Positions 56,619 through 57,032 of a DNA stretch of 64,000 nt are shown one piece after another (within the stretch, counting starts at the first letter, position 1; the number at the start of each line of letters is the position of its first letter). The translations under genes and the position numbers were made by a program. Below the pieces are notes generated by a model. That model ran no database searches. It was not told where the DNA came from and saw only the letters and a program-made list of their open reading frames with translations. The stretch is from the NCBI RefSeq assembly GCF_057098645.1, contig NZ_CM169472.1. The stretch is one strand, 5' to 3'.

Positions 56619-57032
56619 TTGTTCTCCTTCATATGCTCCGACATTTCTCCTGCATTTCTATACGTCGGCACACTTCCGTTATCGGTAAAAACAAAGAAAA
56701 AATACGGCGTAATTAATTCAATAATCACATTCACTGCAAAAATATATTCATTGGTTTACTACAATTAACCTATACATATATTAAGATGTATTGAATTGTT
56801 TAAAGAAGATAATGCATGCATTTCAAATCTGCAAGTTATTCGTTTTATTATCAAAGAAACTTTTAGTTATAATAATTACCATAAATTTTATTACATGAAA
56901 TATTCATACTGTGAATATAAAATCTCATACCGGGAAATTAAAAGAAGATGTACATTGTGCACCTTCCCTACTTAAGTAGGGATAAACCGTTATTGGTCTT
57001 GTTATCGTCATTGATACCAATCATTCCCGAAG
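56619..57032. promoter_or_regulatory. AT-rich cas3-cse1 intergenic region (Cascade operon promoter region)
   Basis: 414-bp strongly AT-rich spacer; in E. coli K-12 the equivalent region carries the H-NS-silenced Cascade promoter and an antisense promoter. Confidence 0.55.
56961..56989 (+). repeat. solitary degenerate CRISPR-repeat-like element (hairpin + ATAAACCG)
   Basis: ACCTTCCCTACTTAAGTAGGGATAAACCG vs repeat GAGTTCCCCGCGCCAGCGGGGATAAACCG: 19/29 identical, 8-nt 3' segment identical, two compensatory stem changes preserving a 6-bp stem; on the opposite strand from the array. Confidence 0.6.

Follow-up and report, generated by a model that had tools for sequence, protein, structure and literature searches.

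What does the unusually AT-rich DNA between cas3 and cse1 (casA) do in Escherichia coli's type I-E CRISPR-Cas locus? We addressed this question in a stretch of 64,000 nucleotides of contig NZ_CM169472.1 (RefSeq assembly GCF_057098645.1; hereafter the window), in which a gap of 414 bp (positions 56619–57032) separates the start of cse1 (56618) from the stop codon of cas3 (57033–57035). The gap is very probably a control region with two layers, namely a cas operon promoter (Pcas) silenced by the nucleoid protein H-NS and, above it, self-repression of the operon by Cascade through a guide RNA of the CreR/CreA type. The first layer is established for E. coli K-12 and would carry over to the present strain by analogy, whereas the second, which other authors had predicted for E. 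coli, gains support here from a comparison of sequences across lineages. To identify the gap as the DNA that controls the type I-E cas genes of E. coli is correct but ordinary; its silencing by H-NS has been a textbook matter since 2010. Both regulatory layers are already in the literature, and the novelty is low.

The cas3–cse1 gap as a probably silenced control region

The gap has a GC content of 0.302, falling to 0.232 in its core (56700–56940), compared with 0.443 in cse1, 0.445 in cas3, and 0.523 in the window as a whole, and it contains nine runs of 8–13 bases made of A and T only. All 414-bp stretches of the 64 kb with a GC content below 0.36 start between 56461 and 56810 and overlap the gap, which is the lowest-GC stretch of the window; the fraction of all 414-bp stretches with a GC content as low as that of the gap is 0.14%. 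An AT content this far above that of the surroundings (GC 0.302 vs 0.523) is what is expected of an H-NS-silenced region. The initial annotation, which had singled out an AT-rich spacer of 414 bp with long A/T tracts and had proposed a base-composition plot as a check, placed the spacer exactly, and the scan bears it out.

The gap is equal in length to the corresponding region of E. coli K-12 MG1655, known as IGLB, and identical to it at 405 of 414 positions (97.8%), with nine substitutions. Of 5426 complete E. coli genomes, 1133 match it together with its edges, almost always at 97–100% identity, and nothing more distant was found within E. coli. The K-12 features of this region, including the two palindromes LBS I and LBS II, the −35 box, and a mini-CRISPR described below, are all present at the same locus in the window.

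According to the published accounts, the IGLB of K-12 holds Pcas (also Pcas8e) and a divergent promoter, anti-Pcas, both repressed by H-NS (Pul 2010; Westra 2010; PMC6698644; PMC12968389). Silencing of Pcas by H-NS in K-12 is attributed to Pul 2010 by the papers that cite it (PMC10011333, PMC3497052, PMC7074321), and its relief by LeuO to Westra 2010. Further regulators of Pcas in K-12 are CRP, which represses it, and LrhA, which activates it (PMC6698644; PMC12968389); StpA is reported to be another repressor. A chromosomal Pcas-lacZ fusion in K-12 measured 6 units in the absence of LeuO and 568 in its presence (PMC6698644). The initial annotation had also proposed an H-NS-type silenced promoter and a locus that is probably cryptic under standard conditions, and this literature on a 97.8%-identical region supports the same behavior in the present strain. 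It is this region that accounts for the silence of the best-studied CRISPR system in laboratory E. coli, and its recognition in a new strain adds little to that.

Low GC could also reflect nothing more than the relaxed composition of non-coding, horizontally acquired DNA, with no regulatory meaning. The cas locus as a whole is indeed lower in GC than the window (0.447 vs 0.523), and several related loci (L008, L009, L013, L015, L016, and L003) keep a complete operon with no gap of this kind. This explanation is nevertheless contradicted by published reporter and footprint data from K-12, where promoters and regulator sites have been mapped in the gap and where silencing has been measured on a nearly identical sequence (PMC6698644). 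It also fails to account for a guide–target pair conserved across lineages and for a cse1-proximal third of the gap that is invariant in 1126 of 1128 genomes, and we regard it as highly improbable.

A degenerate mini-CRISPR and its target beside Pcas

At the cas3-proximal edge of the gap, the initial annotation had reported an orphan repeat-like element. The element is real and sits where it was placed (56961–56989), but it is no orphan. It is the repeat that opens a complete, degenerate mini-CRISPR lying on the plus strand, in the orientation opposite to that of the CRISPR array and the cas genes. This first repeat, psiR1 (ACCTTCCCTACTTAAGTAGGGATAAACCG), is identical to the array repeat at 19 of 29 positions and is followed by a spacer-like guide of 31 nt, psiS (56990–57020), and by a second degenerate repeat, psiR2 (57021–57049), with 14 of 29 identities.

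psiR1 has kept its 8-nt handle ATAAACCG unaltered. Its stem has changed from CCCCGC/GCGGGG to CCCTAC/GTAGGG, with substitutions in both members of three of the six pairs compared with the array repeat, and all six still pair. psiR2 carries 15 base changes relative to the repeat, against 10 in psiR1, and its handle is degenerate (ATTTGCAG). It still forms a hairpin, TCCCGAA-GTTA-TTTGGGA (57025–57042), with six of six stem pairs (five Watson-Crick and one G-T), whose loop contains the cas3 stop codon. Both hairpins are present in the minimum-energy and the centroid folds.

This is the arrangement described for CreA and CreR RNAs, in which psiR1 retains the 5′ handle and psiR2 retains the hairpin (10.1101/2023.03.10.532045): a handle and a Cas6e hairpin lie upstream of the 31-nt psiS, and a more degenerate repeat that has kept its hairpin lies downstream. 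The gap does not have the makings of a functional CRISPR array, as its units match the repeat at only 19 and 14 of 29 positions and its single spacer is fixed at all but two positions among the eight E. coli haplotypes compared. Rfam covariance models run over 56300–57400 on both strands gave no match with E ≤ 1.

The guide has one candidate target in the window. On the plus strand at 56833–56852, a protospacer-adjacent motif (PAM) AAG (56833–56835) is followed by the 17-nt sequence TTATTCGTTTTATTATC (56836–56852), from which the first 17 nt of psiS (TTATTGGTCTTGTTATC) differ at positions 6, 9, and 12. Guide positions 6 and 12 are bases flipped out by Cascade, and because Cascade does not pair them they were left out of the count, which leaves 14 matches at 15 pairing positions. 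No other site with a functional PAM reaches even 11 of 15 on either strand of the 64 kb (128 kb searched), and none of 3000 shuffled guides attained the score of the target within the gap. The AAG overlaps the putative −35 hexamer of Pcas, and the protospacer extends upstream from the PAM. This placement agrees with an earlier prediction (Shmakov et al. 2023, PMC10120712) of an E. coli mini-array whose target lies at an H-NS site next to Pcas.

The same architecture is known from the Salmonella type I-E system, whose CreR brings about Cascade-dependent repression of P_casA, as shown in E. coli with E. coli Cascade (Liu et al. 2023, 10.1101/2023.03.10.532045). The Salmonella CreR and the predicted E. 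coli mini-array (PMC10120712) share with the window a degenerate mini-CRISPR in the cas3–casA gap that is transcribed away from casA, a handle in psiR1, a hairpin in psiR2, and a seed-proximal partial match to an AAG-flanked site at the casA promoter. The Salmonella system differs from the window in its guide sequence and in the distance of the target from cse1, which is about 140 bp there and about 215 bp upstream of cse1 here.

Another account takes the repeat-like element for the inert remains of a former array and holds that the anti-Pcas transcript acts at most as an antisense RNA to the 3′ end of cas3, as was first proposed for K-12. A repeat identity of 19 of 29 is low enough to be equaled by two unrelated places in the window, and the transcript, which measures 150–200 nt in K-12 and overlaps the end of cas3 there, would cover the cas3 stop and last codons; reviews have yet to assign it a role. 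A perfect handle, two hairpins kept through paired changes, and a unique PAM-flanked target beside a promoter are not, however, a combination to be expected of an inert remnant. Antisense action on cas3 could in any case coexist with a function as a guide.

Guide and target change together across lineages

Relatives of the locus were collected through a Cse1 protein search and contig look-ups. Close relatives of the K-12-type Cse1 are few: one Salmonella lineage at 77% identity and a metagenome contig (L007) at 71% are followed by loci at no more than 65%. A long, low-GC gap (376–414 bp, GC 0.31–0.40 vs 0.44–0.58 in the genes) is present in six lineages, namely the Salmonella lineage, L007, L010 (65%), L011 (64%), L012 (61%), and Xenorhabdus ehlersii (L014, 61%). 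The gap measures only 0–94 bp in Atlantibacter, Citrobacter sp. TSA-1, Cronobacter, Pantoea, L013, and L003. A Cse1 scan of reference-genome contigs returned three Methylococcaceae loci only, at 32–36% identity, and in the one that was examined (L003) cas3 abuts cse1.

Both hairpins, of psiR1 and psiR2, occur in the same place and orientation in L007, L010, L011, L012, and L014. The guides between them are unrelated in sequence to that of the window in L010, L011, L012, and L014, while that of L007 agrees with it at 14 of the first 17 nt. The best match to the guide in each of these five lineages, other than the guide itself, is flanked by AAG, lies on the same strand, and is 105–150 nt away. 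Counting E. coli, six lineages thus hold five distinct guides, each with its own matching AAG-flanked site, and guide and target co-vary. Shuffled guides scored as well as the real ones in 0 to 8 of 3000 trials, depending on the lineage.

The pattern of matches is also shared. Guide positions 1–5 and 7–8 match the target in all sequences, position 6 is mismatched in seven of seven, and position 12 is mismatched in five. In every lineage the complement of the PAM runs into a TTGnnn hexamer, with TAnnnT following 16–17 nt later, which is the arrangement of Pcas in the window.

Guide, target, and promoter have therefore moved together, which makes an inert remnant unlikely, even though a Salmonella relative has the element in decayed form; guide and target differ together in five other lineages. 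Co-change across six lineages lends strong support to the prediction, already published, that the anti-Pcas transcript is a guide for Cascade self-repression.

A two-layer model of cas operon control

Under the two-layer model, a weak sigma-70 promoter, Pcas, with a start near 56800, would drive the operon from cse1 through cas2. H-NS would coat the AT-rich DNA and silence both Pcas and anti-Pcas, leaving the locus silent in ordinary culture, and LeuO or LrhA, by binding LBS I (56744–56762) and LBS II (56900–56918), would activate Pcas. Once silencing is lifted, Pcas would give rise to Cascade and anti-Pcas, starting near 56930, to the mini-CRISPR transcript, from which Cas6e would release a crRNA-like RNA (a CRISPR RNA-like species of the CreR/CreA type) of about 60 nt by cutting both hairpins. 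Cascade loaded with this guide would pair over about 17 nt at 56836–56852 and so sit on the −35 edge of Pcas. Pairing of about 17 nt would be too short for recruitment of Cas3 and would instead limit further transcription, so that self-repression would set a ceiling on Cascade production after relief from H-NS.

Several points weigh against this model. On the side of the guide, the mismatch at position 9 in the window is a true one, and K-12 is mismatched at both 9 and 17. The closest relative, Salmonella at 77% Cse1 identity, has a decayed psiR1 and no target, and the circuit is therefore dispensable. Polymorphism within E. coli, with eight haplotypes, is too sparse for a selection test on guide or target. 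Processing of the E. coli mini-CRISPR into a crRNA-like RNA and repression of Pcas by it are suggested by analogy, the experimental demonstrations being those in the Salmonella and Citrobacter systems. With H-NS present, moreover, the cell would produce no guide and no Cascade.

On the side of the promoter and its silencing, the hexamers assigned to Pcas are weak, matching 7 of 12 consensus positions, and fall below the threshold of a consensus scan, and the start of Pcas is a probable one, derived from the numbering published in PMC12968389. The scan called no minus-strand promoter in the gap because Pcas is too weak for it, and such weakness fits a promoter that needs activators. The high-affinity 10-bp H-NS motif TCGATAAATT has one match with two mismatches in the gap and 91 matches with up to two mismatches in the window, which gives no discrimination. 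The motif scan being uninformative, occupancy of the gap by H-NS is presumed from the K-12 reports.

Small hydrophobic open reading frames and the CreTA question

The gap of Citrobacter rodentium raises a further possibility. In its type I-E locus, a Cascade-repressed module in the cas3–casA gap has been demonstrated genetically and includes an open reading frame (ORF) of 96 bp that is toxic only if translated (PMC12055562). This CreTA module and that of the Haloarcula hispanica type I-B system resemble the arrangement in the window in having a crRNA-like gene on the opposite strand and a target at the edge of the casA-facing promoter, and the C. rodentium module shares its position in the cas3–casA gap as well. 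It differs in its PAM, which is ATG rather than the AAG of the window, and in its toxin ORF, to which the window has no counterpart.

The relatives are closer to C. rodentium in this respect. In L010, L011, L012, and L014, an intact ORF of 38–45 codons lies behind the targeted promoter and before cse1, on the plus strand of the respective locus (L010, 2339–2461; L011, 2326–2463; L012, 2350–2472; L014, 2353–2469). The four products can be aligned with one another and have a hydrophobic helix, followed in most by a basic tail (for example, MIELANGIQMILNAVNSITSQGIVLIALLVVGLALIKLHR), and a ribosome-binding site precedes the ORF in at least one relative (L014). L007 has ATA at the start codon and a broken frame, but its homology to the small ORFs at the DNA level is clear (z 5.5–6.2). 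Database-wide searches gave only three members of the family each. It has no match in NCBIfam or PADLOC and only sub-threshold matches in Pfam (IPTL-CTERM, Hol_Tox, and Inovirus coat protein B). Its likeness to the CreT of C. rodentium is one of position and layout. A small-ORF family that the libraries do not name, found where the CRISPR-repressed toxin lies in C. rodentium, should interest specialists.

Neither the window nor K-12 has an intact ORF of this type; a frame of nine codons stands at the aligned position, and no toxin gene was found directly downstream of the targeted promoter. Two candidates were considered and rejected. Similarity of the E. coli leader, the transcribed region between Pcas and cse1, to the ORFs of the relatives is not significant (z 0.5–1.0), which does not favor a decayed toxin gene. 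A 39-codon frame with a GTG start (56615–56734) shows no similarity to the ORF family and no hit in NCBIfam.

These results bear on whether the E. coli gap is an active CreTA addiction module, with a small toxin that kills cells that lose Cascade. The proposal draws on the translated toxin ORF of C. rodentium (PMC12055562) and on the intact hydrophobic ORFs in four relatives, but in E. coli the ORF is lacking, the similarity of the leader to it is no better than chance, and the one leader frame is unrelated. E. coli strains with the same gap also tolerate insertions and stop codons in casA and cas6e, which an active toxin should select against, and the K-12 region has repeatedly been cloned into reporter fusions, whereas cloning proved impossible for the Citrobacter region (PMC12055562). 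An active module in E. coli is thus scarcely credible.

A disarmed module is a less extreme proposal, which we put forward tentatively and hold to be somewhat less probable than its negation. In it, E. coli would have lost the candidate CreT-like toxin gene, encoding a peptide of membrane type, that is seen in the relatives and kept the guide RNA gene and its target for Cascade self-repression beneath an H-NS lid, and the invariant 138-bp leader that took the place of the toxin gene would then have a function of its own. If this were true, loss of the small ORF would account for the frequent cas pseudogenes of E. coli.

Placement of promoters and regulator sites

The published numbering allows Pcas to be placed. 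The core site for LeuO in K-12, IIa, is a 19-bp palindrome with two 7-bp half-sites (PMC6698644), and the gap contains a single perfect 7-N5-7 palindrome, ATATTCATACTGTGAATAT (56900–56918), which we presume to be LBS IIa. A near-copy, ATATTCA-N5-TTACTAC (with TTAATAC in K-12), lies at 56744–56762 and corresponds to LBS I, a site for LeuO and LrhA. In the LrhA study, LBS II was mutated at −116, −114, −102, and −101 and LBS I at +40, +42, +54, and +55 (PMC12968389). These positions fall inside all four half-sites only if the transcription start lies at 56799–56802, which is 7 nt downstream of a TATCTT hexamer.

We accordingly infer that Pcas is the minus-strand pair at 56806–56834, with a −35 hexamer TTGCAG (56834 to 56829), a 17-nt spacer, and a −10 hexamer TATCTT (56811 to 56806). 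A promoter inside the AT-rich tract is thus indicated by the sequence together with the literature numbering, and the same arrangement recurs in five other lineages. Its transcript would begin with a leader of about 180 nt (56619–56800, minus strand). Three promoter candidates were found on the plus strand of the gap. One of them, ATGAAA-17-TAAAAT (56895–56923; 9 of 12 consensus positions, start near 56930), overlaps LBS II and is a candidate promoter for anti-Pcas and the mini-CRISPR.

Of the nine substitutions that separate the gap from that of K-12, five occur in the window only when the eight haplotypes are compared. Two of them are in the −10 box of Pcas at 56807–56808, where the window reads TATCTT and K-12 reads TATTGT. 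The others are an A-to-C change in LBS I at 56759 (about +42), a change at 56897 in the −35 box of anti-Pcas (ATGAAA in the window, ATAAAA in K-12), and an A at 56790, where K-12 has G. At the remaining four positions (56852, 56883, 57001, and 57017), K-12 is the odd one out among the eight haplotypes. The C at 56759 coincides with a position that was mutated in the LrhA study, where a change at +42 made together with one at +40 reduced activation by LrhA (PMC12968389). Natural changes in the −10 box of Pcas and in an LrhA-relevant site make this strain a point of interest for specialists.

Variation within E. coli and damage to the cas genes

Within E. coli, the part of the gap next to cse1 stands out. 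Between 56579 and 56756, which takes in the cse1-proximal third of the gap and the first 40 bp of cse1, there is no variable site among the eight haplotypes, compared with about six sites per 100 bp in the flanks. An identity of at least 99% over the leader segment of 138 bp (56619–56756) is reached by 1126 of 1128 genomes. A coding control of equal length reaches it in 1055 of 1130, and the leader is therefore at least as conserved as coding DNA. Its RNA fold is not unusual (z −0.94), it has no match in Rfam, and its sole ORF is the unrelated GTG-started frame described above. The invariant leader is one of the residual points of interest of the locus.

The cas3 gene beside the gap is frameshifted in the window, unlike that of K-12. 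It equals the cas3 of strain UTME-3 minus one G at 57695 (GATGATGGCG to GATGATGCG), a base that is also present in K-12, and its loss puts the gene out of frame at about codon 668 of 888. Either a genuine pseudogene or a mistake in the assembly may lie behind this. If the frameshift is real, DNA interference should be absent whatever the level of expression.

Other E. coli strains with the gap carry lesions of their own. UTME-3 (L002) has IS3 insertions in casA and cas6e, strain 99-3165 has an internal stop codon in casA, and FUJ80154 has a truncated casA. Across the gap-bearing E. coli loci L002, L018, L020, L022, and hit H49, there are truncations of casA or cas3 and an IS1 in or next to the gap. 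Such frequent damage to the cas genes or the gap fits a locus under little selection.

Genomic setting

The window is part of the E. coli chromosome and is oriented as the K-12 plus strand, with the CRISPR-1 array followed by the cas genes and then by cysHIJ. The gene on one side of the gap, cse1 (55110–56618, minus strand), is an ORF of 502 codons whose K-12 counterpart is casA in RefSeq, and PF09481 is present in all homologues listed. On the other side, cas3 (57033–59698, minus strand) appears as two overlapping ORFs in different frames. The CRISPR-1 array (50610–50943) has six repeats and, like the cas genes, runs opposite to the mini-CRISPR. A degenerate seventh repeat with 20 of 29 matches lies at 50549–50577, at the end of the array distal to the leader; degenerate terminal repeats are usual in CRISPR arrays.

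Two other non-coding flanks of the locus are low in GC, namely the cysH–cas3 gap (59699–60056, GC about 0.34–0.42) and the CRISPR leader (50944–51100, GC about 0.38–0.40). Their K-12 counterparts hold Pcas3 and Pcrispr1, respectively, both of them likewise reported targets of H-NS.

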